DNA of 64,000 bases. It comes from Trichormus sp. ATA11-4-KO1. Lineage in GTDB: Bacteria > Cyanobacteriota > Cyanobacteriia > Cyanobacteriales > Nostocaceae. Made by a program: the position numbers and the translations under genes. The stretch lies in NCBI GenBank assembly GCA_019358915.1, contig JAHHIM010000020.1, positions 16,388-80,387 of the forward strand, read 5' to 3'. Of the stretch, positions 1,704 to 52,504 are shown one piece after another. The notes beneath the pieces were generated by a model. It was not told where the DNA came from. It saw nothing but the letters and a program-made list of their open reading frames with translations, and searched no databases. Every line of letters starts with the position of its first letter. Position 1 is the stretch's first letter.

Positions 1704-1750
1704 AGTCAAAAAGTCAAATATAATTGTATTAAAAATAAGTGAATTAAATA

Positions 1751-2002
1751 ATGTCAGAAATTCCTGCAAAGATTAAAGAATTCCTATCCCGTTTTTTTCG
1801 TAATCATGACTTACAGCTAGATGAGGATATCTTCGCTCTTGGTTTTGTCAACTCTATGTTTGCTATGCAACTTGTCTTATTTATTGAACAAGAATTTCAG
1901 ATTACTATTGAAAACGAAGACTTAGATTTTGCCAACTTTAAAACAATCAATGCTATGACTTGTCTGATAGAAAGCAAAATAAATTTAGTTCCGCAAACAT
2001 AA
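1751..2002 (+). CDS. Stand-alone acyl carrier protein, FkbJ/ZmaD-like
   Basis: 83 aa with GFVNSMFAMQLV, the phosphopantetheine motif typical of hydroxy/methoxymalonyl-ACP carriers. Confidence 0.9.
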   Translation: MSEIPAKIKEFLSRFFRNHDLQLDEDIFALGFVNSMFAMQLVLFIEQEFQITIENEDLDFANFKTINAMTCLIESKINLVPQT

Positions 2003-2043
2003 GTTTTTGACATTTGTAAAACTTTTTATATGGAAGTCAAAAC

Positions 2044-3225: not shown

Positions 3226-3229
3226 AAAC

Positions 3230-10422: not shown

Positions 10423-10496
10423 TGTCAGAAGGCATTATGTTAACATTTGACATCTTCCTAAAAATATTGTGTAATTCATTCAAAAATAATCACACC

Positions 10497-11753
10497 ATGA
10501 ATATATTTGAAAAATGTGAATCAAACGTCAGGAGCTATTGCCGTAATTTTCCCGACATCTTTCATAGAGCTAAAGGTTCTCTCATTTATTCTGACTCAGG
10601 TAGAGAGTATATTGATTTTTTTGCGGGAGCAGGTGCTTTAAATTATGGACATAATCATGACTATATCAAACAAAAGGTCATCTCATATTTAGAAGCTGAT
10701 GGCATAGCACATGGTTTAGATATGTATACTTCAGCCAAGGAGAAGTTTTTATCCAAATTTCATGAAATTGTCTTAACTTCAAAAAAACTCGATTATCGCG
10801 TTCAGTTTTGTGGTCCAACAGGAACAAATGCAGTAGAAGCGGCTTTAAAACTAGCGAGAAAAGTCAAACAAAGAACAGGCATATTCTCCTTCATGGGAGC
10901 ATATCATGGCATGACATTAGGCAGCCTATCTATTAGCGGCAACACTACAATTAAATCGAGTGCAATTGGTACATCCAGTAATGTCACATTTATGCCTTAT
11001 CCCTATGGATTCATGGCAAGTTTTGATACAATAGAATATATAGAGTCGGTGTTAAATGATGTCAACTCCGGAATTGAAAAACCAGCAGCAATCATCTTTG
11101 AAACAGTGCAAGCTGAAGGTGGAGTTGTTGTCGCTCCTATTGAATGGATGCAAAGATTAAGAAATTTGTGTGACGAGAATGATATTTTATTGATCTGTGA
11201 TGATATTCAAGTCGGCTGTGGTCGAACTGGCTCTTTCTTTTCTTTTGAAAGAGCAGATATTATTCCTGATATGGTAGTACTTTCTAAATCTATTAGTGGA
11301 TATGGTTTTCCCATGTCACTATTATTGATTAAACCAGAATTAGATATCTGGGAACCGGGTGAACATAATGGCACTTTTCGGGGTAATCAATTAGCATTTA
11401 TCGGCGCAACAGCAGCTTTAGAGTATAGAGAAAGTAGTAATCTTGAACAAGATGTCAAAGGTAAAGAGCTTCTTTTAAAAAAATTTCTTACTCAAGAAAT
11501 AGCGCCAATCAATGAAAATATAGCTATACGTGGAATTGGTATGATTTGGGGTATTGATGTAAAAAATTTTGGGGGTCAGAGTTTCGCCAAAAGTATCACA
11601 TCGCGTTGCTTTGAATTAGGTGTAATAGTTGAATGTGCAGGTAGAAATGATACTGTAATTAAAATTTTACCACCTTTGATAATTGATACAACCACCTTAG
11701 AAAAGGGTTGCTCAATTATTAAAAAAGCTTTTGATGATTGCTTGTCAAATTAA
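10497..11753 (+). CDS. ectB: Diaminobutyrate-2-oxoglutarate transaminase (EctB/PvdH-like, class III PLP), supplying 2,4-diaminobutyrate
   Basis: ESNVRSYCR, FFAGAGALNYGHN, GPTGTNAVEAALK, DDIQVGCGRTG, LSKS and GEHNGTFRG. Start MNIFEK at 10497 preferred to 10422. No ectA or ectC in the window, so a homolog rather than an ectoine operon. Confidence 0.88.
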   Translation: MNIFEKCESNVRSYCRNFPDIFHRAKGSLIYSDSGREYIDFFAGAGALNYGHNHDYIKQKVISYLEADGIAHGLDMYTSAKEKFLSKFHEIVLTSKKLDYRVQFCGPTGTNAVEAALKLARKVKQRTGIFSFMGAYHGMTLGSLSISGNTTIKSSAIGTSSNVTFMPYPYGFMASFDTIEYIESVLNDVNSGIEKPAAIIFETVQAEGGVVVAPIEWMQRLRNLCDENDILLICDDIQVGCGRTGSFFSFERADIIPDMVVLSKSISGYGFPMSLLLIKPELDIWEPGEHNGTFRGNQLAFIGATAALEYRESSNLEQDVKGKELLLKKFLTQEIAPINENIAIRGIGMIWGIDVKNFGGQSFAKSITSRCFELGVIVECAGRNDTVIKILPPLIIDTTTLEKGCSIIKKAFDDCLSN

Positions 11754-11799
11754 ATTGACATCCGTTCACACTTCAAAAAAACACTTATCAGGAGAAAAT

Positions 11800-24025: not shown

Positions 24026-25084
24026 ATGACAAATACCAGTTTTAATAAAAAAATCAAAAAATTGGGGATTATCAATCGTAAATCTGTCAGTGTATCCCCA
24101 GACGAATTAATCAAAATCTCGTATTTGCAACCCAAAACCTCTCTTCCTTTAATTGTGCAACCAAATGTAGAATCCTTAAATCTGATAGTTTGGACTCAGC
24201 ATAATCGCCCTTGGATTGAAAAGAATTTATTGCAACATGGAGGCATACTTTTTCGAGATTTTAACGTCAAAAATATAACTGAATTTGAGCAATTTATGCA
24301 AGCAATTTCAGGAAACTTGCTGCAATATTCTTATCGTTCTACGCCACGTACTCAGGTCAGTGAAAATATTTATACTTCTACTGAATATCCGGCAACTCAT
24401 TTCATTCCTTTACATAATGAAATGTCTTACTCTCGTACTTGGCCGATGAAAATTGCCTTTTTTTGTATTAATAAAGCGCCACAAGGAGGAGAAACGCCAA
24501 TTGCAGATAGTCGCCGGATTTTTGCTCGTTTAGATACAAAAATTAAAGAAAAGTTCCTGCAAAAACAAGTAATGTATGTGCGAAACTATGGAATAGGATT
24601 AGATTTATCCTGGCAGAATGTCTTTAATACTAATAACAAATCTGAAGTAGAAGCATATTGCCAGAAAATAGGAATTGAATTAGAGTGGAAAGATAGTGAT
24701 ACTTCCGGTATCAGCTTAAAAACTCGTCAAATCTGTCAAGCCGTTGCCAAGCATCCCCAGACATCCGAAATAGTTTGGTTTAATCAAGCTCATTTATTCC
24801 ATGTATCTAATCTAGAACCAACTATTCGCGCACAGCTTTTGGCTGATTTCTCAGAAGAAAATTTACCTCGCAATAGTTATTACGGTGATGGTTCTGCCAT
24901 TGAGACTTCGATATTAGAAGAAATTCGAGAAATTTATCAGCAAGAAGCAATTATTTTTCCTTGGCAAGCAGGAGATATATTGCTACTGGATAATATGCTG
25001 GCTGCACATGGTAGGATGCCATTTCAAGGCTCACGTAAGGTTGTAGTCGGGATGGCTGAAGAATACAATTGTCAGGAAGTTTAG
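24026..25084 (+). CDS. Stand-alone TauD/SyrP-like Fe(II)/2-oxoglutarate aspartyl beta-hydroxylase
   Basis: RSTPRT, YTSTEYP, HNEMSY, GGETPIAD, WFNQAHLFH and DNMLAAHGR; immediately precedes an Asp module. Confidence 0.88.
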   Translation: MTNTSFNKKIKKLGIINRKSVSVSPDELIKISYLQPKTSLPLIVQPNVESLNLIVWTQHNRPWIEKNLLQHGGILFRDFNVKNITEFEQFMQAISGNLLQYSYRSTPRTQVSENIYTSTEYPATHFIPLHNEMSYSRTWPMKIAFFCINKAPQGGETPIADSRRIFARLDTKIKEKFLQKQVMYVRNYGIGLDLSWQNVFNTNNKSEVEAYCQKIGIELEWKDSDTSGISLKTRQICQAVAKHPQTSEIVWFNQAHLFHVSNLEPTIRAQLLADFSEENLPRNSYYGDGSAIETSILEEIREIYQQEAIIFPWQAGDILLLDNMLAAHGRMPFQGSRKVVVGMAEEYNCQEV

Positions 25085-25105
25085 TGCAAAAAACAGGTTT
25101 TGAAT

Positions 25106-28100
25106 ATGCAAAAACAACAAATTTCAGGATTTAGATTATCTCCCCAACAAAAGCATTTATGGTTATTACAACAAAATGATTTAACTGCACCATATCGCGT
25201 CCAGTGTGCAGTTCTAATCACCGAAAAATTGAAGACTGATGTGTTAAAAACAGCATTACAAAATGTTGTTAATCAATATGAGATTCTGCGGACTACTTTT
25301 TCTTTCCTTCCCGGAATGGAAATACCATTACAAGTGATAGTTGATAATTATAATATTTCTCTGACTGAATTTAATTTCACTGATTTGTCCTGGCAAGAGC
25401 AAGAAAGTAAAATTGAGTCACTATTGACTGAAATAAAAACAGTACATTTTAATTTAGAAAATAATCCACCATTCCAAGCATACATTGTCAGTTTATCCTC
25501 AGAAAAATATATACTAATATTAAATTTATCTGCATTAATCGCAGATAGCTCAACTCTCAAATATTTGATAAATAAAATTAGTACTTCATACTCAGCCTGC
25601 TTACAAGGTCAAGATATTAGTAATGAACCAATACAATATGCAGATATTGCTGAATGGCAAAACGAACTTCTAGATTCAGAAGAGTCAGAGCTAGGGAAAG
25701 AGTATTGGCGCAAACAAGATATTACTTCTATTGATAATTTGCATCTTTGGTTTGAAAATCAACAAATTGAAACTTCAGAATTTCAGCCTCAATGTATTTC
25801 TTTAACTATCAATAATGATTTAGTAAAACAAATAGAATCATTAACTCATATATATAATGTCAATAAATGTGATTTTCTGCTAGCTTGTTGGCTAATAATG
25901 CTTTGGAAAATCACCAGACAGCCAGATATGTTTATTGGTGTTGCTAGTGATGGGAGAAAATATGAAGAATTAGACCAAGCTTTAGGACTGTTAACTAAGT
26001 ATTTACCACTTTGTTTTCATTTAGAAGCAGAATTTAAATTTAGTGAAATATTAAAACAAGTAACTGAGTCTGCAAATAACGCCTACGAATGGCAAGAATA
26101 TTTTACCTGGGAGGAAACATTTAAATCAGAAGCTTTTTGTCCATTTAGTTTTGAATTTGCAGAAAATTATTCTGTTGCAGACCTATCATTTTCTCTATAT
26201 AAACAGTATTCTTGTATCGATAAATTTAAAATTAATTTAATTTGCATTGACAAAAGTGATAGTTTAATTACTGAATTACATTTTGATGCAAATTTGTATA
26301 ATACTCAAGATATCCAAACTTTATCAGAACAGTTCAAAACTTTATTAGAAGATGCAATTGCCAATCCTGAAGCTACCATTAGTCAGCTAAATATTCTCAG
26401 CGATCGCACATTACAAAAAATTCTCGTTGAGTTCAACAATACAACTGTCGATTATCCCTCAAATAAGTGCCTACATCAGCTATTTGAAGAACAAGTAGCA
26501 CGCACACCAGAGCAAATAGCTGTTATCTTTGAGCAACAACAACTAACTTATACACAGTTAAATGCACGAGCTAATCAACTAGCTCATTACTTGCGCCAGC
26601 ACGGAGTAGGATCTGAAGTAGTGGTTGCACTGTATATGGAGCGATCGCTAGAATTAATTATCGGATTATTAGCTATTCTCAAAGCTGGTGGAGCTTATAT
26701 TCCCCTAGATCCAGCGTATCCCCAAGAGCGTTTAGCCTGGATGCTGGCAGATGCCAAAGTACCAATATTATTAACTCAACAGCAGCTAGTCAAAACCCTC
26801 CCCGAACATTCAGCACAGGTAATATGCTGGGATCAGGAAGAGGATGCGATCGCTCACCAGAGCCAGGAAAATCCTCATAGCAGCGTGAATCCTGAAAATT
26901 TGGTCTATGTATTGTTCACATCTGGCTCTACTGGCAAACCCAAAGGAGTTGCAGTTGAGCATCGACAACTGAGTAACTACCTCAACGCGATCGTTCAAAC
27001 GCTAGACTTATCTGGATGTAACAGCTTTGCTCACATTTCTACCTTTGCAGCTGATTTAGGCAACACCATTATCTTTCCTTCCCTTTGTACAGGCGGATGT
27101 CTGCACATAGTTTCCTCAGAACGGATTTCCAACCCAGAAGCACTAGCAGACTATTTTCACCAACACCCCATCGATTGCCTTAAGATTGTTCCTGCTCACC
27201 TGGCAGCTCTAATGACAGCTTCTCAACCAGAAAAAATCTTACCTCGACAACGCCTGATTTTAGGTGGTGAGGCTTGTAATTGGCAGTTAATTGAGCAAAT
27301 TCAGCAATTAACTACTGAGTGCCGCATTTTTAACCACTACGGCCCCACGGAAACTACTGTCGGTGTACTAACCTACCCCATTGAGCCAGGAAAAACCCCA
27401 CTTAACTCTAATACAGTTCCCATTGGGCGACCAATTCCTAATACGCAAATCTATATATTAGACTCTTGCTTACAACCAGTACCCATAGGAGTGCCTGGTG
27501 AGTTACACATTGGTGGTGCAAGTGTAACTAGAGGCTACCTCAATCATCCCGACTTAACAAATCAAAAGTTTATTACCAATCCTTTCATAAAAACAGGATG
27601 TCTCTACAAAACCGGAGATTTAGCTCGCTACTTACCAGATGGAAACATTGAGTTTCTCGGCAGAATTGACCAGCAAGTTAAAATTCGCGGTTACCGTATT
27701 GAGTTAGGAGAGATTGAGATAGTACTCAAACAACACCCATCGATGCGGGAGGCTGTGGTTATCTGCCATGAAGAACAAACAGGTAACAAGCGGCTAATTG
27801 CTTATGTAGTAGTAAAAACACAATCTGCCCTAAATAATACCCATCTGCGCGAATTTTTGCAGGAAAAGCTACCCCAGTATATGCTGCCGTCGGTATTCAT
27901 GCAGTTGCAGGCTTTACCGTTATTGCCCAATGGCAAAATAAACCGCCAAGCTTTACCAGTACCCGATACCAGCAAGGCAGAGTTTGCTGTCGCACCTCGT
28001 ACCCAGGTTGAAGAAGTGTTAGCTGGAATTTGGGCAGATATTCTAGAACTACCGCAAGTTGGTATCTATGACAACTTCTTTGAGGTAGGTGGAGATTCGA

Positions 28101-28366
28101 TTCTCAGCATTCGCATTGTTGCTAAAGCCAATCAAGCGGGTTTACAACTTACCCCCAAGCAGATGTTTGAATATCAGACAATTGCCGAACTCGCAGCCGT
28201 GGTGCAGGTAAATCAAGAGAAGCAACTGGAAGAGGAAATTCCGTTGACACCCCCTCAACCTCCGTCTCACAACAGCGCAAGTTATACACCCTCCGACTTT
28301 CCGCAAGCAAATTTAAACCAAAAAGATTTAGATAATTTTCTGACAAAACTCAATCAAAAAAAATGA
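25106..28366 (+). CDS. NRPS interface(C-like)-A(Asp)-T with a vestigial, deleted E domain
   Basis: GFRLSPQQKHLW start; LSALIAD in place of HHxxxDG; A pocket DLTKIGHVG (Asp); T GGDSI; then PLTP..YTPSDFP. Alternative TTG start at 25100. Confidence 0.88.
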   Translation: MQKQQISGFRLSPQQKHLWLLQQNDLTAPYRVQCAVLITEKLKTDVLKTALQNVVNQYEILRTTFSFLPGMEIPLQVIVDNYNISLTEFNFTDLSWQEQESKIESLLTEIKTVHFNLENNPPFQAYIVSLSSEKYILILNLSALIADSSTLKYLINKISTSYSACLQGQDISNEPIQYADIAEWQNELLDSEESELGKEYWRKQDITSIDNLHLWFENQQIETSEFQPQCISLTINNDLVKQIESLTHIYNVNKCDFLLACWLIMLWKITRQPDMFIGVASDGRKYEELDQALGLLTKYLPLCFHLEAEFKFSEILKQVTESANNAYEWQEYFTWEETFKSEAFCPFSFEFAENYSVADLSFSLYKQYSCIDKFKINLICIDKSDSLITELHFDANLYNTQDIQTLSEQFKTLLEDAIANPEATISQLNILSDRTLQKILVEFNNTTVDYPSNKCLHQLFEEQVARTPEQIAVIFEQQQLTYTQLNARANQLAHYLRQHGVGSEVVVALYMERSLELIIGLLAILKAGGAYIPLDPAYPQERLAWMLADAKVPILLTQQQLVKTLPEHSAQVICWDQEEDAIAHQSQENPHSSVNPENLVYVLFTSGSTGKPKGVAVEHRQLSNYLNAIVQTLDLSGCNSFAHISTFAADLGNTIIFPSLCTGGCLHIVSSERISNPEALADYFHQHPIDCLKIVPAHLAALMTASQPEKILPRQRLILGGEACNWQLIEQIQQLTTECRIFNHYGPTETTVGVLTYPIEPGKTPLNSNTVPIGRPIPNTQIYILDSCLQPVPIGVPGELHIGGASVTRGYLNHPDLTNQKFITNPFIKTGCLYKTGDLARYLPDGNIEFLGRIDQQVKIRGYRIELGEIEIVLKQHPSMREAVVICHEEQTGNKRLIAYVVVKTQSALNNTHLREFLQEKLPQYMLPSVFMQLQALPLLPNGKINRQALPVPDTSKAEFAVAPRTQVEEVLAGIWADILELPQVGIYDNFFEVGGDSILSIRIVAKANQAGLQLTPKQMFEYQTIAELAAVVQVNQEKQLEEEIPLTPPQPPSHNSASYTPSDFPQANLNQKDLDNFLTKLNQKK

Positions 28367-29784
28367 AAACAGAAAACATCGAAGATATTTACGAACTGTC
28401 ACCAATACAAAAAGGGATTCTGTTTCACAGCTTATTTGCTCCGGAATTGGGACTGTATTTTTTTCAGATGCCCTTTGTTTTGCGTGGTCATCTTAATGTT
28501 GCAGCTTTTGAGCAAGCTTGGCAAGAAGTAGCAGCTAGACACACAATCTTACGCACTGGTTTTTATTGGGAAGACATTAACAAACCACTACAAGTGGTGT
28601 ATCGAGAAATCCAAATAACTCTAGATGAGCATGATTGGCGGGAAATAGATTCTAGTCAACAGCAACAGCAATTAAAGTCATTTCTGGAGAGCGATCGCCA
28701 GCGAGGCTTTGATATGTCTCAAGAATGTTTAATGCGTCTGAGTTTGTTCCGCCTCACAGATGATTGTTATCAATTTGTTTGGAGCCGACACTTTATCGTT
28801 TTAGATGGGTGGTCAGTACCTATAGTGCTGAATGAGGTAATTCAAATTTATGAAGGACTTTGTCAAGGTAAGCAAGTATCGTTAACACCCAGCATTCCCT
28901 ATCGGCATTACATCAACTGGTTGCAAAAGCAAAATATATCTGAAGCAGAGGTATTCTGGCGACAAGCATTGCATGGTTTAAAAACCCCTACTTCCTTACA
29001 AAAGTTAAATGCAAAAAATCTTTCTCCCCAGGAAGCAAAATATGAAGAACAACGCATCACTGTATCGACAGCAACCACAACAGCCCTACAGTTTCTAGCA
29101 AGACAGCATCAGCTGACGCTGAGTACACTTTTTCAGGGATTATGGGCTATTCTTTTGAGTCACTATAGTGGTGAAAAAAAAGTCCTTTATGGGTGTACTG
29201 TTGCTGGTCGTCCTATCGAACTAGTCAGAGAAGAACCACTTTTAGGATTATTTGTTAACAGCTTGCCTGTATGGGTGGACGTGGACGCTGAACAATTTCT
29301 GCTGGTGTGGCTGAAGCAACTTCAAAAACAAATAGTTGAAATGCGCCAGTATGAATGGACACCATTGGTAGAGATTCAAGGATGGAGTGAAATACCACGT
29401 AGCTTACCTTTATTTGAGAGCATTTTAGTCTATGAAAACGCACCAGTAGAGAAAATTTTACAAGAAGGGCATAGTATTATAGATATCTCAAATTCATCTA
29501 TATTCTCTGATTCAAGTACTTTTTATAAGACTAACTATCCTATCGCAATAGCTGTTTATCCAGGTTCCAGTTTTTGTATTGGCATTGATTATGATTTCCG
29601 CCGCTTCGACGCTGCAACAATTACTGGCATATTGCAGCATTTTGATATCTTACTCCAAAACATAATAAATCATCCTGAAGTGCGTATTCAGGAATTATCT
29701 TTGCTGACGGATCGAGAGCAAAACATCTCTGTGATGTTGGAAAAACAAATAATATTTAATTTTAATTTAACTGCGTGCAATTAG
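28363..29784 (+). CDS. Second free-standing DCL-like condensation domain with a non-canonical active site
   Basis: IEDIYELSPIQKGILFH, RHTILRTGF and TNYPI; active site WSRHFIVLDGWS; clear paralog of 9025..10422. Confidence 0.85.
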   Translation: MKTENIEDIYELSPIQKGILFHSLFAPELGLYFFQMPFVLRGHLNVAAFEQAWQEVAARHTILRTGFYWEDINKPLQVVYREIQITLDEHDWREIDSSQQQQQLKSFLESDRQRGFDMSQECLMRLSLFRLTDDCYQFVWSRHFIVLDGWSVPIVLNEVIQIYEGLCQGKQVSLTPSIPYRHYINWLQKQNISEAEVFWRQALHGLKTPTSLQKLNAKNLSPQEAKYEEQRITVSTATTTALQFLARQHQLTLSTLFQGLWAILLSHYSGEKKVLYGCTVAGRPIELVREEPLLGLFVNSLPVWVDVDAEQFLLVWLKQLQKQIVEMRQYEWTPLVEIQGWSEIPRSLPLFESILVYENAPVEKILQEGHSIIDISNSSIFSDSSTFYKTNYPIAIAVYPGSSFCIGIDYDFRRFDAATITGILQHFDILLQNIINHPEVRIQELSLLTDREQNISVMLEKQIIFNFNLTACN

Positions 29785-29864
29785 GAATATGAGGATAGTG
29801 GAATTTATTACCTCAATCTGATTAAGCTTATTTTAATACATCTTTCTTTTCCCAAACTTTAATC

Positions 29865-30755
29865 ATGATTACTTCATCTTCAATAATTGACAAACACTAC
29901 AAACTTTCACATCAAGAATTTATTTCAAGTTATGTAAAGCCAGCAAAACCAGTCATCATTTCTGGATTAATTGAAAATTGGGATGCTTTTGGTAAATGGT
30001 CATTAGATTTTTTGCAAGAAAGTGCCCCAGAAATTAATATTTGTGCTAAGGAGTTTACTAACGGCACCATAAAAACTAACAATTTTACACTCAAAGAGTA
30101 TACAAAAATCATTAAAGAATTTGAAATAAAAAACAAATATCATGAAAATGTTGCATCACCTCCTTATTGCCATGATATTCCTCTGTTTAGCTTAGTTCCT
30201 CATCTCATTAGAGATGTTCAATTTCCCACAAATTATTTACCAAAATGGTATACAGAAAAATGGTGGCGCTATTGTCAATTTTTTATAGGAGCATCTAATA
30301 GCCTAACTCCATTACATTTTGATTGTCTTTTAACAAATAATCTTTTTTTCCAAATTGTTGGACGCAAAAAATTTACTATACTCACATATGAGGACAAAAA
30401 ATATTGTTATCGATATGATTGGCGATGGTTTAAGGTCAATCCAGAGAATCCTGATTTTGATAAGTATCCAAAATATAAAAATGCTAGACCAATTGAAATT
30501 ATTGTAAATCCTGGCGATATTTTATATATGCCTCCTGGTACTTTGCATCATGTAAGAAGTTTAGATATGTCAATTTCTTTTAATATTGATTGGCATACCA
30601 ACAGCAGCGTAATTAATAGTTTAACAGCTTGTTTAAAAGGGATGCCAATGCAAAACGTTTATTATAATTTTTTATTAACATTAGGCTTGGTTTTTCAAGT
30701 ACCTCCTCAAATAATTTTTAAATTTTACAAAACTTATCTAAATTATATTTCCTAA
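29865..30755 (+). CDS. JmjC/cupin-like Fe(II)/2-oxoglutarate oxygenase
   Basis: KPVIISG, TPLHFD (HxD), QIVGRKKF and PGDILYMPPGTLHHVRS. Confidence 0.85.
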   Translation: MITSSSIIDKHYKLSHQEFISSYVKPAKPVIISGLIENWDAFGKWSLDFLQESAPEINICAKEFTNGTIKTNNFTLKEYTKIIKEFEIKNKYHENVASPPYCHDIPLFSLVPHLIRDVQFPTNYLPKWYTEKWWRYCQFFIGASNSLTPLHFDCLLTNNLFFQIVGRKKFTILTYEDKKYCYRYDWRWFKVNPENPDFDKYPKYKNARPIEIIVNPGDILYMPPGTLHHVRSLDMSISFNIDWHTNSSVINSLTACLKGMPMQNVYYNFLLTLGLVFQVPPQIIFKFYKTYLNYIS

Positions 30756-30907
30756 TGTAAAACAGCTAAATTGTATATTTTAGTTGATATTAAAGCATAT
30801 TGCGATCGCTAAAAATGAAATGAGTGTTCAAATATAAAATAGTTTTTTGATAATTATTTGACACGATAAATTGACCAAGATTACAATTCACATAAAAAAG
30901 GTAACAA

Positions 30908-33900
30908 ATGACAATTAATCAGCAAATTCAAGATTTAATTACTCCTGAAGAGTTATTTTCACAAAAATTTTATTGGGTAAATCAGCTATCTGGAGAACTA
31001 CCAGAATCAAATTTCATCACAGATTTCATTAGACCTGCAATTTATCGAGGAAAGAATAAGTCTGTTGAGTTTAATTTACCAGATAAATTATCAGCATCTC
31101 TGATTAAGTTTACAAATCATTCTTATCTATCCATTTATTTATTGCTTGTCTCAGCGCTTGGTATATTGTTGCGAAAATATACTGGTAGTAATGATGTAAT
31201 TATTGGTTCGCCAACTTATCAGAATGCAGAAATTAACGAAAATACAAGTAATAAAATTTTACCTTTACGCTTGTATGTAGATAGTCAAGTTACCTTTAAA
31301 GATTTTCTGCTTCATGTTAAAGAAAAAATGGTTAGCGCCTATAGCCATCAAGATTATAATTTTGATGAATTAGTTAGCTTATTGGAAATACCAAAAACAC
31401 CAAACAGATGCCCAATTTTTGATATTGCAATTTTATTAGAAAACATTCACGAATATATTAACATAAATAATGATGTAACATTTGCTTTTAAAGTAACTGG
31501 AAACTCTATCCAAGGTCAGGTAAAATATGTCGATAGTCTTTTTCAAGAAACAACTATTAAGACTATTATTAAATATTACCTGAATATCCTGGAAGCTATT
31601 ATTTCTGATTGTTATACACAAATTGTCGATATTTCCTTCCTCAAAGCAGAAGATGAATATAAAATTCTATCAGCTTTTAACAATAATTTGCAAGCAGGAT
31701 ATCCCTTAAATCAGACTATCAACCAGTTATTTGAACAGCAGGTAGAGCAAACACCAAACCGCATAGCAGCAGTTTTTGGCAATCTTGAACTCACTTACCA
31801 AGAATTAAATCAAAAAGCCAATCAACTCGCTAGATTTTTACAGAATTTAGGAGTCAAACAAAGAGAATTCGTGGGAATTCTCAAAGAGCGAGATATTAAT
31901 TTTCTTATCGGCATACTTGCCATATATAAAGCTGGTGGAGCTTACGTACCAATTGATAGTACGTATCCCTCAGATAGAATCAAGTACATGGTATATAACA
32001 GCGAAGTGAAGATTCTTTTAACAGATTCTTCTTGCTTAAATATACTCATAAATTTACAAAAAGATTGTCCGCACCTACAATTCCTAGTCTGTTCAGATAT
32101 CAAACCTCAGGTAGCAAATTTCAATCAGTTAATAAATATTGACATATACGATCAAAGAGATTTTAAGAATTTACCACAAGAAAATTTAGAAATTATTAAT
32201 GTAGCCAGCGATCCGGCATATATGCTCTATACTTCGGGGTCAACTGGTTTACCTAAGGGGGCAATTGTTAGGCATGATGGTGCAATCAATCATATTTATG
32301 CTCAGTTTGATGCTTTAGAGTTGAATGAAGATTTTTGTTTTCTCCAAAGCGCTGCTGCTTCTACAGATATTTCTGTCTGGCAATTTCTAGCACCGCTATT
32401 AATTGGTGGAAAAACAGTCATAGTCGATATTGAAAGCGGTTTTGTACCTGAAAAGTTATTTAAAGTTCTTCAAGAACAAAGAATAACTGTTGTTGAATTA
32501 GTACCAGCAGTATTTGGCGGATTAATAGACTATATTTCTCAATTATTACCTCACCAAAGATTGTTACTTGATTTGAAGTGGATGATGGTAGTAGGAGAAC
32601 CAGTATCAGTTCAAAGGCTAAATCAATGGTTGAGGATTTATCCTTCCATCAAAGTAGCTGATGCTTACGGTCCAACTGAAGCTGCTGATGATATTACTCA
32701 GTACATTGTAGAAAAACCTTTACCAGAGAGCCAACGAACAGTTCCTATTGGTAAACCATTAGCAAACTTAAATATTTATATTCTTGACCCAAAACTCAAC
32801 TTATTACCAATTGGAGTTCCTGGGGAAATTTGTGTTGCAGGAATTGGAGTGGGTAATGGTTACTGGAAAAATGAAGAAAAAACAAATTTAAGCTTTGTTG
32901 CCAATCCTTTTCCCCACACTACTAAATTATTACCAGAAACTTACCGAGATTTAATTTATAAAACCGGAGATTTAGGAAGATGGTTACCTGATGGGAATAT
33001 TGAGTTTTTAGGACGTATTGATCATCAAGTAAAAATTCGTGGCTTTCGTGTTGAACTGGGAGAAATAGAGGCTCTACTAGCAAAGCATCCAGCAATCAGG
33101 GAGGCTGTAGTTATACTCAGGGAAGATATCCCTGGTGAAAAACGTTTGGTAGCTTATATGATTGTATCCAGCGACCAAATACCAACAAACGACCCAGCAG
33201 TTAGCAGTGAATTAATCCTAGAGCTACGCAATTCACTCAAAGAAAGATTGCCAGACTATATGATACCGTCAGCTTTCTTACTGCTGGAAGCATTTCCCCT
33301 GAGTCCTAGTGGCAAAATAGACCGTAAGGCATTACCAGTACCAGATTGGTCACAACGAAATTTAGCGCAGTCTTATATTGCACCCCGCACACCTACAGAG
33401 GAAATGATAGCTGGTATTTGGTCGCAGGTGCTTGGTGTTGAGCAAGTGGGTGTTGATGATAACTTTTTTGACCTGGGAGGACATTCCTTATTAGCAACTT
33501 TGGTTGTTTCCCAGTTGCGGAATGTATTCCACATAGAACTACCTTTGCGTAATATTTTTGACTTTCCCACAGTGGTAACCTTAGCAAAGTCTGTGGAGAT
33601 AATGAAGCAGTCACAGGAGCATCTCCAGTCACCGCCCATAGTACCCATCCCCCGGAATGGTAAGGAGCCACTGTCATTTGCACAACAACGGTTGTGGTTT
33701 ATCGACCAGTTAGAACCAAACAACCCTGCCTATAACCACTTTAATGCTGTACGTATTACAGGTGCGCTCAACATAGTTGCATTAAAACAGAGCCTCAATG
33801 AAATTATCAGACGACATGAAGCTTTGCGAACGAGTTTTCCGGCCGCAGATGGTCAACCAATTTGTGCGATCGCCCCAGCTTTGACCTTAGAACTACCTGT

Positions 33901-36034
33901 GGTAGAGTTGCAAGTATTGTCGGCAAATCAGCGAGAAGCAGAGGTGTTGCAGCTAGCTCAACAAGAAGCAGCACAACCGTTTGATTTAGCCCAGTCACCT
34001 TTGTTGCGAGCAAAATTGTTGAAGTTAGACGCAGCAGAGTATGTTTTACTCCTGACAATACACCATATTATTTTTGATGGCTGGTCTAGTGGGGTACTTA
34101 ACCAAGAAATAGTCACACTTTACGAAGCTTTTTCTTCTGGAAAGCCTTCACCCTTGGCAGAACTTTCTATCCAATATGCTGATTTTGCTTACTGGCAGCG
34201 ACAATGGTTGCAAGGTAAAACACTAGAAACCCAACTGTCCTACTGGCAAAAACAGTTAGCAGGTGCTTCTACAAGTTTGGATCTACACAAAATAGCCAGC
34301 AACTTCTCATCTACTGTCAAAATAGAGGCTACAGAGGCATCCTTCTTACTTTCCCCTGAGCTATCCGAACAAATCAAAAAACTCAGCCGCCAAGAGGGAG
34401 TCACACTGTTTATGACCCTACTGGCAATTTTTCAAATACTTTTATATCGCTACACAAATCAGGATGACATTATAGTTGGCACTGATGTCGCCAACCGCAA
34501 TCGAGCCGAAATTGAACCACTAATCGGTTTCTTTGTCAACTTGCTGGTTTTACGCACCGACTTATCTGGCAACCCTAGTTTTCAAGAACTGCTAGGGCGG
34601 GTGCGTGAAGTCACTTTGGGGGCTTATGCCCACCAAGACTTACCTTTTGCCAAGTTAGTAGAAGAATTACGTCCAGATAGAAATTCTAGTGCCACACCAC
34701 TATTTCAGGTGTTATTTGTTCTGCAAAATGTTCCTATGCCTACTGTAGAACTTTCAGACCTCACCCTCGCACCGATGGAGATTGATAACGGTCTAGCAAA
34801 GTTTGATTTAGCTTTATTTTTGGCAGAAACACCATCAGGAATTGTGGGGACTTGGAAGTATAATACCGATTTATTTAATGCTGCTACTATTACTCGCATC
34901 TCAGAGCATTTTGCCATTTTATTGCAGAGTATTGTTGCTCAACCTGATGCCAGAATTAACACTTTAGAAATGCTAACTGAAGTTGAAAAGAAACAACAAA
35001 TGATGGAACAAGCAAAACAAGAACAAAGCAAACTGAAAAAGTTTATGCAGGTTAAGCCTAAGGCGATGAAGTTGCCACAGGGACAACTAATCACCACCGA
35101 TTATCTACAGCCTGGTGAAACACTTCCCCTCGTGATTAAACCTGCTGTTGAGCAAATTGATCTGATTGACTGGGTGAAAAGTCACAAAGAATTAATTGAA
35201 TCAAAATTGTTATCTCATGGTGCTTTGCTGTTTAGAGGTTTTAATATTGATTCACCATCAGCATTTGAGAATTTAGCACAAGCTATTTGTCCACAGTTGT
35301 TTGGTGAGTATGGCGATTTACCACGCGAGGGAATAGGCGGGAAAGTTTACGGTTCTACCCCATATCCATCAGACCAAGCTATTTTATTTCACAACGAAAG
35401 TTCACATCTACACTGCTGGCCTTTAAAAATTTGGTTTTTCTGCTTGCAAAGTCCTCAAGTTGGTGGCGAAACACCTATAGTGGATTGTCGCAAAGTATAT
35501 CAGTTACTTGATCCGAAGTTGCGATCGCACTTTGAACAAAAGCAATTAATGTATGTTCGTAACTACATTCAAGGTTTGGATGTCAGCTGGCAAGAATTTT
35601 TCCATACAAGCGATCGCACAGTAGTTAAAAAATACTGTCATCAAGCTAAGATTGATTTTGAGTGGAAGGAAGAGGATCATTTTTTGACTCGGCAAGTACG
35701 GCCTGCTATAACCAAGCATCCTCAAACTGGTGAGTTAATCTTTTTCAACCAAATTCAGCTGCATCATGTATCTTGCTTAGAACCAGCCGTCAAAGACTCT
35801 TTGTTATCAACTTTTGGCGCAGAAAAACTGCCCCGAAATGTTTATTATGGCGATGGTTCTCCTATTGAAGATGCTGTAGTCGAGGAAATTTGCTCAGTTT
35901 ACGAGCAAGCCAAAGTGAGTTTTCCTTGGCAGCAAGGTGATGTGTTAATGCTGGATAATATGCTGACTGCACATGGTCGTAACCCTTATGTGGGGCCACG
36001 TAAAATTTTGGTGGCTATGGGTGAAATGCACTAA
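30908..36034 (+). CDS. NRPS (half C)-A(Dab-like)-T-C-TauD with a fused beta-hydroxylase
   Basis: Starts YWVNQLSGELP; A pocket DIWEMVADD; T GGHSL; C HHIIFDG; C-terminal TauD with YGDLP, HNESSH and DNMLTAHGR. Confidence 0.9.
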   Translation: MTINQQIQDLITPEELFSQKFYWVNQLSGELPESNFITDFIRPAIYRGKNKSVEFNLPDKLSASLIKFTNHSYLSIYLLLVSALGILLRKYTGSNDVIIGSPTYQNAEINENTSNKILPLRLYVDSQVTFKDFLLHVKEKMVSAYSHQDYNFDELVSLLEIPKTPNRCPIFDIAILLENIHEYININNDVTFAFKVTGNSIQGQVKYVDSLFQETTIKTIIKYYLNILEAIISDCYTQIVDISFLKAEDEYKILSAFNNNLQAGYPLNQTINQLFEQQVEQTPNRIAAVFGNLELTYQELNQKANQLARFLQNLGVKQREFVGILKERDINFLIGILAIYKAGGAYVPIDSTYPSDRIKYMVYNSEVKILLTDSSCLNILINLQKDCPHLQFLVCSDIKPQVANFNQLINIDIYDQRDFKNLPQENLEIINVASDPAYMLYTSGSTGLPKGAIVRHDGAINHIYAQFDALELNEDFCFLQSAAASTDISVWQFLAPLLIGGKTVIVDIESGFVPEKLFKVLQEQRITVVELVPAVFGGLIDYISQLLPHQRLLLDLKWMMVVGEPVSVQRLNQWLRIYPSIKVADAYGPTEAADDITQYIVEKPLPESQRTVPIGKPLANLNIYILDPKLNLLPIGVPGEICVAGIGVGNGYWKNEEKTNLSFVANPFPHTTKLLPETYRDLIYKTGDLGRWLPDGNIEFLGRIDHQVKIRGFRVELGEIEALLAKHPAIREAVVILREDIPGEKRLVAYMIVSSDQIPTNDPAVSSELILELRNSLKERLPDYMIPSAFLLLEAFPLSPSGKIDRKALPVPDWSQRNLAQSYIAPRTPTEEMIAGIWSQVLGVEQVGVDDNFFDLGGHSLLATLVVSQLRNVFHIELPLRNIFDFPTVVTLAKSVEIMKQSQEHLQSPPIVPIPRNGKEPLSFAQQRLWFIDQLEPNNPAYNHFNAVRITGALNIVALKQSLNEIIRRHEALRTSFPAADGQPICAIAPALTLELPVVELQVLSANQREAEVLQLAQQEAAQPFDLAQSPLLRAKLLKLDAAEYVLLLTIHHIIFDGWSSGVLNQEIVTLYEAFSSGKPSPLAELSIQYADFAYWQRQWLQGKTLETQLSYWQKQLAGASTSLDLHKIASNFSSTVKIEATEASFLLSPELSEQIKKLSRQEGVTLFMTLLAIFQILLYRYTNQDDIIVGTDVANRNRAEIEPLIGFFVNLLVLRTDLSGNPSFQELLGRVREVTLGAYAHQDLPFAKLVEELRPDRNSSATPLFQVLFVLQNVPMPTVELSDLTLAPMEIDNGLAKFDLALFLAETPSGIVGTWKYNTDLFNAATITRISEHFAILLQSIVAQPDARINTLEMLTEVEKKQQMMEQAKQEQSKLKKFMQVKPKAMKLPQGQLITTDYLQPGETLPLVIKPAVEQIDLIDWVKSHKELIESKLLSHGALLFRGFNIDSPSAFENLAQAICPQLFGEYGDLPREGIGGKVYGSTPYPSDQAILFHNESSHLHCWPLKIWFFCLQSPQVGGETPIVDCRKVYQLLDPKLRSHFEQKQLMYVRNYIQGLDVSWQEFFHTSDRTVVKKYCHQAKIDFEWKEEDHFLTRQVRPAITKHPQTGELIFFNQIQLHHVSCLEPAVKDSLLSTFGAEKLPRNVYYGDGSPIEDAVVEEICSVYEQAKVSFPWQQGDVLMLDNMLTAHGRNPYVGPRKILVAMGEMH

Positions 36035-36445: not shown

Positions 36446-39400
36446 ATGCAAGCTGAAACAATTGAGGGCTTTCGACTCTCTCCACAGCAAAAAAGTTTGT
36501 GGTTACTCCAACAAGATAGTGATGTTTATCGCGCCCAATGTAGCATTTTAATTGCAGGCAAAATTAAAATAGAAGTTCTGCAAGCAGCCTTACAGCAAAT
36601 TATCAATCAGCATGAAATTTTCCGGACTACATTTCATCGTCGTCCTGGCATAAAATTTCCTATTCAAGTAATAGCAGATAGTTGTAATATATCCTGGAAT
36701 AATATCAATCTCAGTGATTTAGCTGGGCAGGAACAACAAAATAAAATTGCAGAATTATTGCAGCAAGAGAAGTCTTATGTTTGTCAATTTGAGCAAAGTC
36801 CATTATTACGTTCTTGCCTGTTAACTTTATCAGAACAACAGTATCTTTTAATATTGACTTTGCCGTCATTGTGTGCAGATAGCTGGACAATCAAAAATTT
36901 AGTCAAAGAAATCAGCGATAATTATGCTGCACATTTAGATGGTAAAGAAATACCAGAGCCAGGAGTACAGTACATTCAATTTTCTGAATGGCAGAATGAA
37001 CTGATAGAAGCAGAAGAAGCAGAAACAGGAAAAAATTACTGGCAAGGACAAAATTTCGTCAACCAAATTCCTCATATACTGCCTTTCGAGAGTAAGTTTA
37101 TCGACACATTTGAGACTGATTGTTACTCTATCAATATAGATTCCAGTTTAGTGAAAAAGCTGGAAGCGATCGCTACTATAAATAAAACTACAATTAGTGA
37201 ATTATTACTAGCTTGTTGGCAAATATTATTCTACAGAATATTAAAACAATCAGATATTTTTGTAAGTACTGTTTTTCATGGCAGAAACTACGAAGAACTA
37301 CATACAATAATGGGTCTATTAGCTAAATGGCTACCAATTCGTTGTAGTTTTCAAGATAATTTTAAATTTAAGGAAATTTTATCGCAAACGAGCGAAACTC
37401 TACGCAATCACCATCAATACCAGGAATATTTTATTGGTGAAGAAGAAACAGAAACAACCGCCAAATTGCCAATAAGCTTTGAGTTTGAGGAACATCCAAG
37501 CACTTATTACAGCGATGGGGTTTCGTTTTCTCTTCATCAGCAGTATGTCTGTTTTGATAGATTCAAAATCAAGCTTTCCTGCATACGTACAGAAGCTTAT
37601 TTATGTGCAGAATTTCATTACGATACTAATTTATTTGTACAAGCAGATATTGCCAGATTAGCAGAACAATTTCTGACTTTAGTAGCAAGTGTAGCTAACA
37701 ATATAGAGTCTACAGTTAGTGAGTTAGAAATTCTCAGCGATCGCCAACGACAACAATTATTAATTGATTTCAATCAAACTCATATTAATCATCCAAAAGA
37801 TAAGTGTATTCATCATCTGTTTGAAGCACAGGTAGAGCAAACACCACACAACATTGCTGTTGTATTTCAAGAAGAACAACTAACATATATTGAACTGAAT
37901 AATCGCGCCAACCAATTAGCTCACTACCTACAAAAATTAGGAGTTGATACAGAAACACTAGTAGGTATTTATTTAGAGCGATCGCACCTCAACATTATTG
38001 CTCTTTTAGCTATTCTCAAAGCTGGTGCAGCTTACGTACCACTAGATCCAGCATTACCACCAGAAGCTTTAGAATTTCGGTTACAGGATGTGCAAGCGTC
38101 AGTTTTATTAACCCAAGATTCACTAGTTCAACAACTTTCGGAAACTGCTGTACAAGTCATTTGCTTAGATAAAAACTGGGAAGTAATTACCCAAGAAAAT
38201 CAAAGTAATCCTCAAACTTTGGTAAAACCAGAAAATTTAGTTTATGCTATTTTCACCTCTGGTTCTACAGGTAAACCCAAAGCAGTTGGCGTTGAACATC
38301 AGCAACTCCTCAATTACTTATACGGTGTTGTAGATAGACTCGACTTGCCAAAAGGCGGAAGCTTCGCTACTGTTTCCACATTTGCGGCTGACTTGGGTAA
38401 CACAGTCATCTTCGCAGCGTTGTGTCACGGTGGATGTCTGCATATCTTATCTCAAGAGCAAGCATCAGATCCCCAAGCACTAGCAGATTACTTCCAACAG
38501 CATCCCATCGACTGCTTAAAGATTGTTCCCTCTCACTTAGCTGCTTTAATAGCATCCTCTCCTCCTCAGACTCTCCTCCCTCGTCAGTGTCTAATTTTGG
38601 GTGGAGAAGTCAGCAGTTGGGATTTAATTGAGAAAATTCAAGCACAAGCACCAAAATGTCAGATTTTTAACCATTATGGCCCGACAGAAACAACTGTAGG
38701 AGTGCTAACTTACCCAGTTTACAGCCGAAAATATAGCCATAATTCACACACAGTACCTCTGGGTAAACCCTTAGCTAATACCCAAGTTTACGTACTAGAC
38801 ACACAGCTACGTCCCGTACCCATAGGCGTACCAGGCGAACTTTATATTGGTGGCGCGTCACTCAGTAGAGGTTACCTCAATCGACCGGAACTAACAACCG
38901 AGAGGTTTATTCAAAATCCTTTCATACCCGAAGCAAAATTATACAAAACCGGAGACTTAGTACGTTACTTGCCAGATGGAAATCTAGAATTTCTCGGAAG
39001 AAGTGACAACCAAGTGAAAATTCGTGGCTTCCGTATTGAATTAGGGGAAATTGAAGCTACCTTGAGACAGCATCCTAGTGTACAGGAAGTTGTAGTCCTA
39101 GCAACACAGGAAAAACTTGGTGATCAGCGTTTAGTAGCGTATATAGTTGTCAATTCTCCATCAGGACTCACCAACCAAAAACTTGAATCTGCACTCCCAG
39201 GGGAACTACGCAATTTCTGTTTGCAAAAGCTAACTGAGTATATGTTACCTTCAGCTTTTGTTTTCTTGAAAACACTGCCATTAACACCCAATGGTAAGAT
39301 AGACCGTCAAGCCTTGCTAGCCATTGAACACACTCGTCCTCAGCTAGCACAGACTTATGTAGCACCACGTACTCCCACAGAAAAGCAGTTGGCTGAGATT

Positions 39401-40801
39401 TGGATAAATCTCTTGAATTTGACACAAGTTGGTATTCATGATAACTTCTTTGAATTAGGTGGACATTCCCTACTAATCACTCAGTTACTTGCCAAAGTCC
39501 GCAACACTTTTCACGTAGATATACCTTTACGAGAATTTTTTAATGCAGCTACTATTGCTGATTTAGCTCAAAGCATTGACAACAAACAGGAAGTTAATTG
39601 CACCAATATTGATCTCAATGCTGAAGCTGTTTTAGACCCAGAAATTCGTCCTGTAGGAAGTCCAGTAGATTACAGCGAAGTAAATTTCATTTTCTTAACA
39701 GGTGCAACTGGGTTTTTAGGAGTATTTTTACTTTACGAACTACTACAACAAACATCAGCAAAGATTTATTGTCTGGTGCGTGCTAACACAACTGTAGATG
39801 GTAAAAATAGGCTGCAAAACAGCTTACAATCTTACTTACTTTGGGATGAAAGTTTTAGCGATCGCATGATTCCCGTCATGGGAGATTTATCTCAACCGCG
39901 ATTGGGATTGTCAGAGTCAGAGTTTAGCAATTTCGCCAGCCAAATAGATGTCATCTATCATAATGGTGCATTTGTCAACTTTACATACCCATATTCCCAA
40001 CTCAAAGTAGCCAACGTCTTAGGCACTCAAGAAGTATTAAGATTAGCGGCTCAAGTTAAAGTTAAGCCAGTACATTTTATTTCCACTATTGGTGTAGTTG
40101 GTGCAGCTGATTCCCAACTAGAAATAATTCGCGAAGATACCCCGAATAATCGCAGTGAAAATATCAAAAGTGGTTATACCCAGAGTAAATGGGTAGCCGA
40201 AAAATTAGTCAAAATAGCAGGCGATCGCGGTATTCCCATTTCTATTTACAGACCAGGCCGCATTTCTGGACATTCAGTTACGGGTGTTTGCAACGTCAAT
40301 GATCACACCTTCAGAATGATTAAAGGCTGTATTCAACTTGGTAGTGCGCCTCTTAATGACTCAATGGTGAATTTAACTCCCATTGATTATGCTAGCAAAG
40401 CAATTATTTATTTATCTCGGCAAAAAGCATCCTTAGGCAAAGTGTTTCATATTATTAATCCTCAGCCTCAACCTTGGAATGAAATGATTAATATCATTGC
40501 TGATTTTGGTTATGCACTCAAGCCAATTGCCTATGAAAAATGGCGCTTAGAACTACTACAAGCAGTCGAGCGATCGCCTGATAATGCTTTGTCTCCTTTA
40601 ATTGGCACCTTTACTGATAGCGAAACACCAAAAAGCAATGCAGAGGAGTCATCACCATCCCAATTAGATTATGAAAATACTCTCACTGGATTAGCAGAAA
40701 CTGCAATTAATTGTCCACCAGTAAATGCCAAATTACTAAATACTTATTTCTCTTACTTAATTGACAGTGGCTTTTTAAATGCTCCACAGTTAATTATTTA
40801 G
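36446..40801 (+). CDS. Terminal NRPS interface-A(Asp)-T-R (thioester reductase)
   Basis: GFRLSPQQ and LPSLCAD; A pocket DLTKIGHVG; T GGHSL; R domain FLTGATGFLG, GYTQSKWVAE and YRPG. Confidence 0.92.
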   Translation: MQAETIEGFRLSPQQKSLWLLQQDSDVYRAQCSILIAGKIKIEVLQAALQQIINQHEIFRTTFHRRPGIKFPIQVIADSCNISWNNINLSDLAGQEQQNKIAELLQQEKSYVCQFEQSPLLRSCLLTLSEQQYLLILTLPSLCADSWTIKNLVKEISDNYAAHLDGKEIPEPGVQYIQFSEWQNELIEAEEAETGKNYWQGQNFVNQIPHILPFESKFIDTFETDCYSINIDSSLVKKLEAIATINKTTISELLLACWQILFYRILKQSDIFVSTVFHGRNYEELHTIMGLLAKWLPIRCSFQDNFKFKEILSQTSETLRNHHQYQEYFIGEEETETTAKLPISFEFEEHPSTYYSDGVSFSLHQQYVCFDRFKIKLSCIRTEAYLCAEFHYDTNLFVQADIARLAEQFLTLVASVANNIESTVSELEILSDRQRQQLLIDFNQTHINHPKDKCIHHLFEAQVEQTPHNIAVVFQEEQLTYIELNNRANQLAHYLQKLGVDTETLVGIYLERSHLNIIALLAILKAGAAYVPLDPALPPEALEFRLQDVQASVLLTQDSLVQQLSETAVQVICLDKNWEVITQENQSNPQTLVKPENLVYAIFTSGSTGKPKAVGVEHQQLLNYLYGVVDRLDLPKGGSFATVSTFAADLGNTVIFAALCHGGCLHILSQEQASDPQALADYFQQHPIDCLKIVPSHLAALIASSPPQTLLPRQCLILGGEVSSWDLIEKIQAQAPKCQIFNHYGPTETTVGVLTYPVYSRKYSHNSHTVPLGKPLANTQVYVLDTQLRPVPIGVPGELYIGGASLSRGYLNRPELTTERFIQNPFIPEAKLYKTGDLVRYLPDGNLEFLGRSDNQVKIRGFRIELGEIEATLRQHPSVQEVVVLATQEKLGDQRLVAYIVVNSPSGLTNQKLESALPGELRNFCLQKLTEYMLPSAFVFLKTLPLTPNGKIDRQALLAIEHTRPQLAQTYVAPRTPTEKQLAEIWINLLNLTQVGIHDNFFELGGHSLLITQLLAKVRNTFHVDIPLREFFNAATIADLAQSIDNKQEVNCTNIDLNAEAVLDPEIRPVGSPVDYSEVNFIFLTGATGFLGVFLLYELLQQTSAKIYCLVRANTTVDGKNRLQNSLQSYLLWDESFSDRMIPVMGDLSQPRLGLSESEFSNFASQIDVIYHNGAFVNFTYPYSQLKVANVLGTQEVLRLAAQVKVKPVHFISTIGVVGAADSQLEIIREDTPNNRSENIKSGYTQSKWVAEKLVKIAGDRGIPISIYRPGRISGHSVTGVCNVNDHTFRMIKGCIQLGSAPLNDSMVNLTPIDYASKAIIYLSRQKASLGKVFHIINPQPQPWNEMINIIADFGYALKPIAYEKWRLELLQAVERSPDNALSPLIGTFTDSETPKSNAEESSPSQLDYENTLTGLAETAINCPPVNAKLLNTYFSYLIDSGFLNAPQLII

Positions 40802-40861
40802 AGCTTGACAGTAAATCATACCAATAAACAAACCACAGAGGCACAGAGAGCGCAAAGAAGA

Positions 40862-44267: not shown

Positions 44268-44272
44268 AATTT

Positions 44273-47145: not shown

Positions 47146-47188
47146 ATAAAATTGCTGAGTTTTGTAAAAATAACCCTGAATAACTATT

Positions 47189-52308: not shown

Positions 52309-52504
52309 TGAGGTTTTGGCAAGTTATTTTGGTTTGCTGATAGATTCTTATCTTAAGGCGTGGGTTGACAAATGCGACTCTTACGCATCTGATCAAGTCC
52401 TGAGTCCATTCTTGATTCTTGACCAATTAACATGCCACATTAAACTGATGTCATCTGCAACAAATCAGATGATGTAAGTGCAAAAATATACCAAGATTTT
52501 ACTT

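Follow-up and report, generated by a model that had tools for sequence, protein, structure and literature searches.

A conserved cyanobacterial gene cassette of a tailed condensation protein and a half-C diaminobutyrate module

Two free condensation proteins in one assembly line

The window analyzed here, a stretch of 64,000 nucleotides of contig JAHHIM010000020.1 from Trichormus sp. ATA11-4-KO1, carries an assembly line of nonribosomal peptide synthetases (NRPSs) and polyketide synthases (PKSs) in which two condensation (C) domains occur as free-standing proteins, free C1 and free C2 (copies 1 and 2; Table 1). Downstream of each lies an NRPS that starts with only half of a C domain and whose A domain we assign to diaminobutyrate (Dab). 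Both free C genes are intact, encoding 473 (copy 2) and 465 (copy 1) residues with one Pfam Condensation domain each. Translation confirmed the motif that the initial annotation had reported for copy 2, HFIVLDG, where Phe stands at the position of the catalytic His, and its finding of two intact frames with different hydrophobic replacements also held, copy 1 reading NLIILDG with both His residues gone. The similar tails that it had described, LETEMSLDFDF and LEKQIIFNFNL, are present on the two proteins; in copy 2 predicted alone, tail residues 463-473 had a local confidence score (pLDDT) <50.

By sequence and fold, copy 2 is of the DCL type, and it begins like a communication-mediating (COM) acceptor, for which PMC11546977 gives the motif L(T/S)PxQxG. 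Its HFIVLDG departs from the canonical DCL motif HHxxxDG and, unlike a canonical DCL domain, it does not stand behind an epimerization (E) domain: E is deleted upstream and the COM tail kept. The deletion in the donor NRPS (28175-28366) is clean, with a GGDSI-type T domain, a few residues of the E start and a TPSD COM tail. The same loss is seen at the related loci L002 and L052, E being retained at L003 and others, and the stereochemistry of hydroxy-Asp at the donor module may differ among relatives.

Table 1. Features of the window discussed in the text (positions in the window).
Feature	Position	Strand	Remarks
Free C, copy 1	9025..10422	+	NLIILDG at 9448-9468; sub-clade differs from that of copy 2
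EctB-type diaminobutyrate aminotransferase	10422..11753	+	Dab supply; above the TIGR02407 cut-off
NRPS halfC-A(DIWEMSADDK)-T, copy 1	11731..14568	+	Pfam match, A-domain code
Stand-alone TauD hydroxylase	24026..25084	+	would serve the donor Asp module
Donor NRPS, interface-type C-A(Asp-like)-T	25100..28366	+	E domain deleted; COM-donor tail YTPSDFP... from ~28283 kept; 4-base overlap with free C start
Free-standing DCL-derived condensation protein, copy 2	28363..29784	+	473 aa; N-terminal COM-acceptor-like start LSPIQKG
Active-site motif of copy 2	28789..28809	+	CACTTTATCGTTTTAGATGGG = HFIVLDG; second (catalytic) His replaced by Phe144
Tyr388 of copy 2	29524..29526	+	family-specific residue
C-terminal tail of copy 2, residues 447-470	29701..29772	+	helix plus LEKQIIFNF; predicted docking element
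JmjC/Cupin_8 oxygenase	29865..30755	+	296 aa, intact HxD...H; candidate Dab beta-hydroxylase
NRPS halfC-A(DIWEMVADDK)-T-C-TauD	30908..36034	+	Pfam match, A-domain code
Half C, predicted landing pad	30941..31681	+	consists of the C-lobe, with a shorter floor loop and latch
Val562, A-domain pocket position 301	32591..32593	+	tracks JmjC presence
Final NRPS, interface-type C-A-T-reductase	36446..40801	+	domain scan, motif reading

Including the 16 kb upstream of the window, the assembly line starts with FAAL-T-C-A-T, two PKSs, an extender cassette (HADH, ACP, ACAD, FkbH) and C-A-T-E. It continues with free C1, the EctB-type aminotransferase, halfC-A-T, a PKS, C-A(Gly)-T-C, TauD and I-A(Asp)-T, and ends with free C2, a JmjC oxygenase, halfC-A-T-C-TauD, I-A-T-R, an aldo-keto reductase and an MbtH-like ORF. 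The substrate labels of the A domains are our assignments, from our own reading of the codes against code tables, and exclude the A domain of the final NRPS. The half C with YWVNQLSGELP, which the initial annotation had seen at the start of the NRPS behind copy 2, is indeed there; this NRPS does not directly follow the free C, since the JmjC gene, which that annotation had overlooked, stands between them. At copy 1, the half C matches only Pfam positions 189-456.

All C-domain matches of the genome fall on this one contig. Each amide needs one full C, and the line has just two positions where a full C is missing, the same number as there are free C proteins. Because the domain count leaves no other full C there, and because the half C has no N-lobe active site, the free C proteins would fill the two gaps.

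A family dedicated to half-C Dab modules

The free C query gave 491 matches. Among the best 120 of these, the motif starts with HH in 70, HF in 37, HM in 9, HQ in 2 and NF and HV in 1 each, and an LEKExxFxF-like tail ends nearly all. Our analysis uncovered 39 distinct loci with a tailed C. The next synthetase was visible in 36 of them and starts with a half C in every case (36/36); its A-domain code is D(I/V)WEMxADDK in 34/34 readable loci, where the motif starts are HF (23), HH (5), NH (3), HM (2) and HL (1). The tie to diamino-acid half-C modules proposed in the initial annotation is thereby borne out. Copy 1 of the window and locus L113 lie outside the filter of this set, yet fit the pattern; related loci are not independent, hence no P value is given. 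The description of these C proteins as free-standing holds for most loci, the tailed C being fused to an upstream NRPS or PKS in 7 of the 39. The donors include T-E, T alone and PKS.

The association was also recovered from the other side. A half-C query on 301 genomes found eight places at family level (230 bits or more, where the rest scored 102 or less), two of them the window's own, and a tailed C lies upstream at 6/6 of the others. The code was readable in 104 of 120 half-C proteins and was always DIW-type (16 unread). Plasmid searches returned two family-level matches, both cyanobacterial and without a characterized product. The free C and the half-C Dab module form a conserved cyanobacterial gene cassette that is maintained. 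The Dab assignment rests on the A-domain code together with the EctB-type aminotransferase; DIWEMVADDK and DIWEMSADDK resemble the pyoverdine Dab code.

A domains of the Dab type are present in conventional cis modules as well (twice in L116, and in L175, L234 and P0437), so the device is not required for Dab. In L116 (both modules), L234 and P0437 the code is the same or near-identical and the His is kept. At L175 (1480-7353), ordinary and half-C Dab modules stand side by side, which makes this locus a useful natural comparison, and L116 likewise has Dab-coded cis modules besides. The same cassette with an HH member is found in the pREB1 cluster of Acaryochloris marina MBIC11017 (L232, 15949-27965), beside chorismate-binding and benzoate-CoA ligase genes; this strain and Calothrix sp. 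PCC 7103 (L002/L004) are carriers in culture. No single-chain C-halfC-A(Dab) fusion was seen in 79 longer matches, a weak negative, as long proteins crowd the search. The tandem DCL-C-A proteins of L070, L073 and L111 were rejected as the same device, their second C (NHHQ motif) being of full length.

To find what marks the family, 154 members (matches plus locus proteins) were compared with 66 cis DCL domains of the same loci. The second His is kept in 79/154 members against 65/66 controls, and the 75 replacements are F (59), M (11), L (2), Q (2) and V (1), that is, 73 hydrophobic residues and two Gln. The first His (position 143) is retained in 148 members and is Asn in 6. Position 388 is Tyr in 99% of the members and Glu (61%) or Asp (20%) in the controls; Tyr276, Cys278 and Ile423 are likewise family-specific, and Asp273, Arg304, Tyr360 and Arg422 are relaxed.

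In a tree built without the motif and tail columns, whose deep nodes are weak, 154 of 155 sequences formed one clade apart from the controls (support 0.99) and one joined weakly. Copies 1 and 2 sit in different sub-clades. His is ancestral, with five changes by binary and seven by multistate parsimony. The initial annotation had defined a subtype by the loss of this His; we ruled that out as a marker, since half of the family keeps the residue in the same gene context and the ancestor had it, with at least five changes since. The family is marked by its tail and the near-invariant Tyr388 rather than by His loss, and the state of the His showed no clean pattern with donor type or JmjC among the loci. 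An NH-motif sub-clade (L049, L103, L113) has LEL-type tails in place of FxF, hinting at a second docking specificity.

Selection was estimated by Nei-Gojobori dN/dS, for which the pairs are not independent. The ratio was 0.12-0.28 in 16 HF pairs above 90% identity and 0.15-0.26 in six of eight computable HH pairs; copy 2 gave 0.20 against L002 and 0.15 against L003, its two nearest loci, and copy 1 gave 0.15 against L067. Purifying selection is equal in the His-bearing and His-less classes, in agreement with the earlier view of genes maintained rather than decaying. It is hardly credible that the His-less proteins are decaying relics of duplicated modules: a residue conserved in 98% of the controls has been lost and an E domain deleted just upstream, but all computable pairs above 62% identity had a dN/dS of 0.08-0.31, and the ORFs are intact across several cyanobacterial families. 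The family amounts to a natural experiment, with orthologs in one context that carry His, Phe, Met, Leu, Gln or Val, under purifying selection and in small, soluble, assayable proteins. What the second His of HHxxxDG does is a matter of continuing debate, as passages of PMC11546977 and PMC10510592 indicate.

Predicted docking of the tail and comparable junctions

We predicted the complex of free C2 with the half C and part of the A core (residues 10-500). It scored 0.73, against 0.00 for the best of three unrelated proteins. Of solved complexes, 116 of 157 attain the mark for such scores, as do 2 of 215 mismatched pairs; these counts are approximate here, own alignments having been used. The runs agreed in at least 81% of contacts, and the partner pLDDT was at least 80. 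Residues 447-470 (the tail), 266-271 and 418-426 of copy 2 are predicted to contact residues 12-29, 67-78 and 131-147 of the half C, an interface that includes K20, K67, K131 and K138, conserved at 92-97%. Between the half Cs of copies 1 and 2, 17 of 38 residues in the predicted interface are identical. The tail is thus predicted to dock on the half C with which the following synthetase begins; this interface and the conservation of the tail favor the proposal of the initial annotation that the tails are docking elements. Reviews, in the passages available, place the donor-carrier site of C domains on the C-lobe, and the tail may therefore occupy the vacated donor face of the half C. No similar complex was present among the structure matches, and a likeness to C-domain contacts is possible.

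Half-size C-lobes without HHxxxDG are also found before the A domain as the C* of module 1 of ACV synthetase and the ADA of the Lys2/NPS3 reductases (PMC7884236). Our half C shares this build, as it consists of a C-lobe alone, lacks the active-site motif and precedes an A domain. It heads an elongation module with a Dab-type code, whereas C*/ADA head aminoadipate initiation modules and are needed for adenylation; the available passages of PMC7884236 describe neither a partner C nor a docking tail for them.

The junction itself is not confined to cyanobacteria. In a representative search, 50 of 150 giant NRPSs had their first A domain at residues 200-330. On the half-C profile, 49 N-terminal matches had a median of 148 bits, with ~18 residues missing, against 104 bits for 741 internal C-lobes; Paenibacillus, Abyssisolibacter and Aminicenantes are named carriers. 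HH, counted by alignment, is kept in 72/72 C-terminal LCL domains of the giant NRPSs, 40 of them with the tail. P0308 from Paenibacillus starts with a half C, has codes for Leu, Thr, Dab and Dab, and closes with a terminal C (HHMVSDG) and the end IEFAF; from its architecture we take it to be PmxA-like. The half-C/FxF-tail junction is general outside cyanobacteria and is not Dab-specific there. Like this polymyxin-type junction, the cassette has an upstream full C with an acidic-aromatic FxF tail before a subunit that starts with a C-lobe-only domain with the ~18-residue deletion. The polymyxin-type donor C is LCL-type, fused, has an intact HH and serves any amino acid, whereas ours is DCL-derived, mostly free, Dab-dedicated and often His-less. 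The pelgipeptin subunits PlpD/E/F are drawn as C-A-T-C, A-T...C and A-T-TE in PMC3479019, whose available passages mention neither a half C nor a docking tail.

Such junctions bear on whether the bond to Dab is ordinary. An active trans C, docked by its tail, might form a normal alpha-peptide bond, tight docking and a reactive acceptor making the His dispensable. We regard this as possible, though doubtful. The same junction makes ordinary bonds in the polymyxin-type P0308, half of the family has kept HH, and at L175 an A domain of the same Dab code, in an ordinary LCL module, nests inside the half-C clade, so that parts do interchange. Left unexplained are the HH of all 72 other trans-docked domains and the fixation of Tyr388. 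If an ordinary alpha-amide were proven, a docking variant would be left. His loss is explained neither by docking in trans nor by a Dab-coded acceptor, since cis modules for Dab keep the residue; only this Dab-dedicated, DCL-derived clade loses it repeatedly.

No description of the cassette or of tail/half-C docking was found in the literature searched, and an earlier account is possible. The available passages of PMC12904278, PMC12971057, PMC12628792, PMC9213223, PMC11877528, PMC11240249, PMC3039948, PMC10510592, PMC11546977, PMC3479019, PMC10212144, PMC7884236, PMC13310621, PMC9569983 and bioRxiv 10.64898/2026.07.24.740629 do not describe the cassette. If borne out, the pairing of tail and half C would offer NRPS engineering a transferable docking system in which one module is divided between its C and A domains.

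The JmjC gene, mechanism and cluster product

The protein encoded between free C2 and its half-C NRPS has a Cupin_8 fold with the HxD...H iron triad, and its nearest solved relative is JMJD5. It matched in 38 of the 301 genomes; a tailed C lies directly upstream and an aminotransferase downstream in 29/29 other loci returned. When 20 of the 39 other JmjC matches were extended, halfC-A was found in 20/20, with Val at position 301 in 19 and Ser in one, and a PKS KS was the next or second-next gene in 10. After removal of duplicates, Val301 occurs in 24/25 modules with JmjC and in 0/30 without. Copies 1 and 2 reproduce this difference within one cluster, with Ser and Val, respectively. The A-domain tree shows one gain, about three reversions and one exception, so few independent events that the JmjC/Val301 link is suggestive only. 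Covariation and gene order suggest hydroxy-Dab in copy 2. The JmjC gene and both half-C regions have a GC content of 0.29 (genome 0.42), and the copy 2 A domain is nearer to JmjC-type cassettes than to its ortholog in L002; together, these point to cassette exchange by recombination. The sequence QIIFKF in JmjC was considered as a second FxF docking tail and judged coincidental, being internal and basic, with an invariant YLNYxS end after it.

The JmjC gene also enters the case for His-less members as pseudo-enzymes, which, like X or interface domains, would bridge synthetases or recruit JmjC while the amide forms by proximity. Copy 1 lacks both His, interface-type pseudo-C domains occur twice in the cluster, and JmjC follows the C directly in all 29 loci. 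We nonetheless find this improbable, because the line has no further full C that could make these bonds, JmjC accompanies HH, HM, HL, NH and HF alike while most HF loci have no JmjC, and only hydrophobic residues or Gln replace the His. I and X domains are C-like, lack the catalytic His and are oxygenase-linked; I domains head A-T modules and X domains close glycopeptide NRPSs with HRxxxDG, and the free C does neither. In the 39 loci, family members occur as free proteins or at a C-terminus and in no case precede an A domain in cis; their motif differs from that of X domains, and no P450 was present among the 25 proteins scanned. The window has I-type domains of its own, which are separate from the free C.

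VibH and other amine-acylating C domains are also free-standing, and VibH is among those cited as tolerating loss of the second His (passages of PMC10510592, PMC13310621); they use a free small amine as acceptor, whereas that of the free C would be T-bound. In FAA-type domains, the second His is conserved in >99%. The best sequence and fold matches are McyB C1 (8HLK) and PvdL C3 (9LCQ, 9UP2), at 387 and 297 bits and TM scores up to 0.86. PvdL C3, which follows an E domain, works with a Dab module and in this resembles the Dab-linked family; unlike the family, both are in cis to the A domain, with HH, Glu or Thr at 388 and no tail.

These relatives raise a further alternative, an alpha-amide followed by cyclodehydration with the gamma-amine in a Cy-like, tetrahydropyrimidine-forming C domain, which we consider unlikely. 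The order hydroxy-Asp/Dab/hydroxy-Asp recalls corrugatin. Cy domains also lack the second His (PMC10510592), and in pyoverdine a Dab ring follows a D-residue (PMC9569983), PvdL C3 being among the closest solved relatives. The Cy motif DxxxxD, however, is absent from the family, in which the first His stays in nearly all members, and PvdL C3 keeps HH.

Whatever its regiochemistry, free C2 is quite probably an active, tail-docked trans C. Docking in trans and a Dab acceptor each fail, on their own, to account for a dispensable His, while the clade loses it repeatedly and fixes Tyr388; we therefore sought a special cause. According to passages of PMC10510592 and PMC11546977, the alpha-amine is held in position by the second His, the mutation of which is tolerated in several C domains; with another amine as the nucleophile, this His would not be needed. 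In the model that we favor, the upstream COM tail would bind the N-terminus of free C2, which would dock by its own C-terminal tail on a half C kept only as A-domain support and landing pad. JmjC would make hydroxylated Dab, chosen by the Val301 pocket, and free C2 would join the upstream chain to T-bound (hydroxy-)Dab by the side-chain gamma-amine, with Tyr388 possibly taking over amine positioning. The free alpha-amine might then close an ectoine-like tetrahydropyrimidine ring; this step and the gamma-amine attack are the most uncertain. Acylation of the gamma-amine by the docked C, with or without ring closure, is plausible at somewhat below even chances. The complete picture of an unrecognized C-domain class, docked on a half C, with Tyr388 for His, Dab side-chain acylation and an ectoine-type ring, is held only tentatively and is on balance rather unlikely.

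Several points weigh against gamma-acylation and its use of Tyr388. The His is kept in 79/154 members. The DCL domain that precedes the ring-forming Dab in pyoverdine assembly, PvdL C3, has both His and no half C. The Dab module often precedes a PKS (copy 1 and half of the extended JmjC loci), where a free alpha-amine could self-cleave unless the ring forms. On the structural side, the half-C interface is no more conserved than the rest (0.73 vs 0.75, a neutral result), and the controls of the complex were not tail-less DCL cousins. Judging by alignment, Tyr388 presumably lies at the latch end. If the complete picture is true, the cassette, with its C, the half-C Dab module, the EctB-type aminotransferase and JmjC as partner, would build hydroxyectoine-like rings into the backbone of a widespread, unisolated cyanobacterial siderophore family. 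The cassette would also predict the chemistry of uncharacterized cyanobacterial metallophore clusters, including Dab hydroxylation where Val301 and JmjC occur.

The product of the window's cluster is likely a siderophore, as its pair of hydroxy-Asp modules and its reductive release are reminiscent of cyanochelin clusters. Passages of bioRxiv 10.64898/2026.07.24.740629 describe the latter with a FAAL start, two hydroxy-Asp modules with TauD and reductive release, and those searched have no Dab; our cluster has, in addition, two Dab devices, three PKS modules and the hydroxymalonyl-type cassette. No TonB-dependent receptor was found among the 25 proteins scanned, DUF4331, TPR and NicO-like genes lying at 43017-47800 instead; uptake genes may lie elsewhere, as only 1.3 kb of the contig remain on the upstream side of the cluster. 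The Fur-box consensus had 0 matches upstream at 3 mismatches.

Within this probable siderophore cluster, HADH, ACP (1751-2002), ACAD and FkbH at 840-4300 form a hydroxymalonyl-type extender cassette. Before both interface-type pseudo-C domains, at 25100 (SALIAD) and 36446 (PSLCAD), stand a C-terminal C and a TauD, the latter free in one case and fused in the other. At 36446-42076, the terminal reductase is followed by the aldo-keto reductase, a pairing that suggests an alcohol as the released form, as with cyanochelin C. Further downstream, at 50755-54076, lie two adjacent divergent Na+/H+ antiporter genes.

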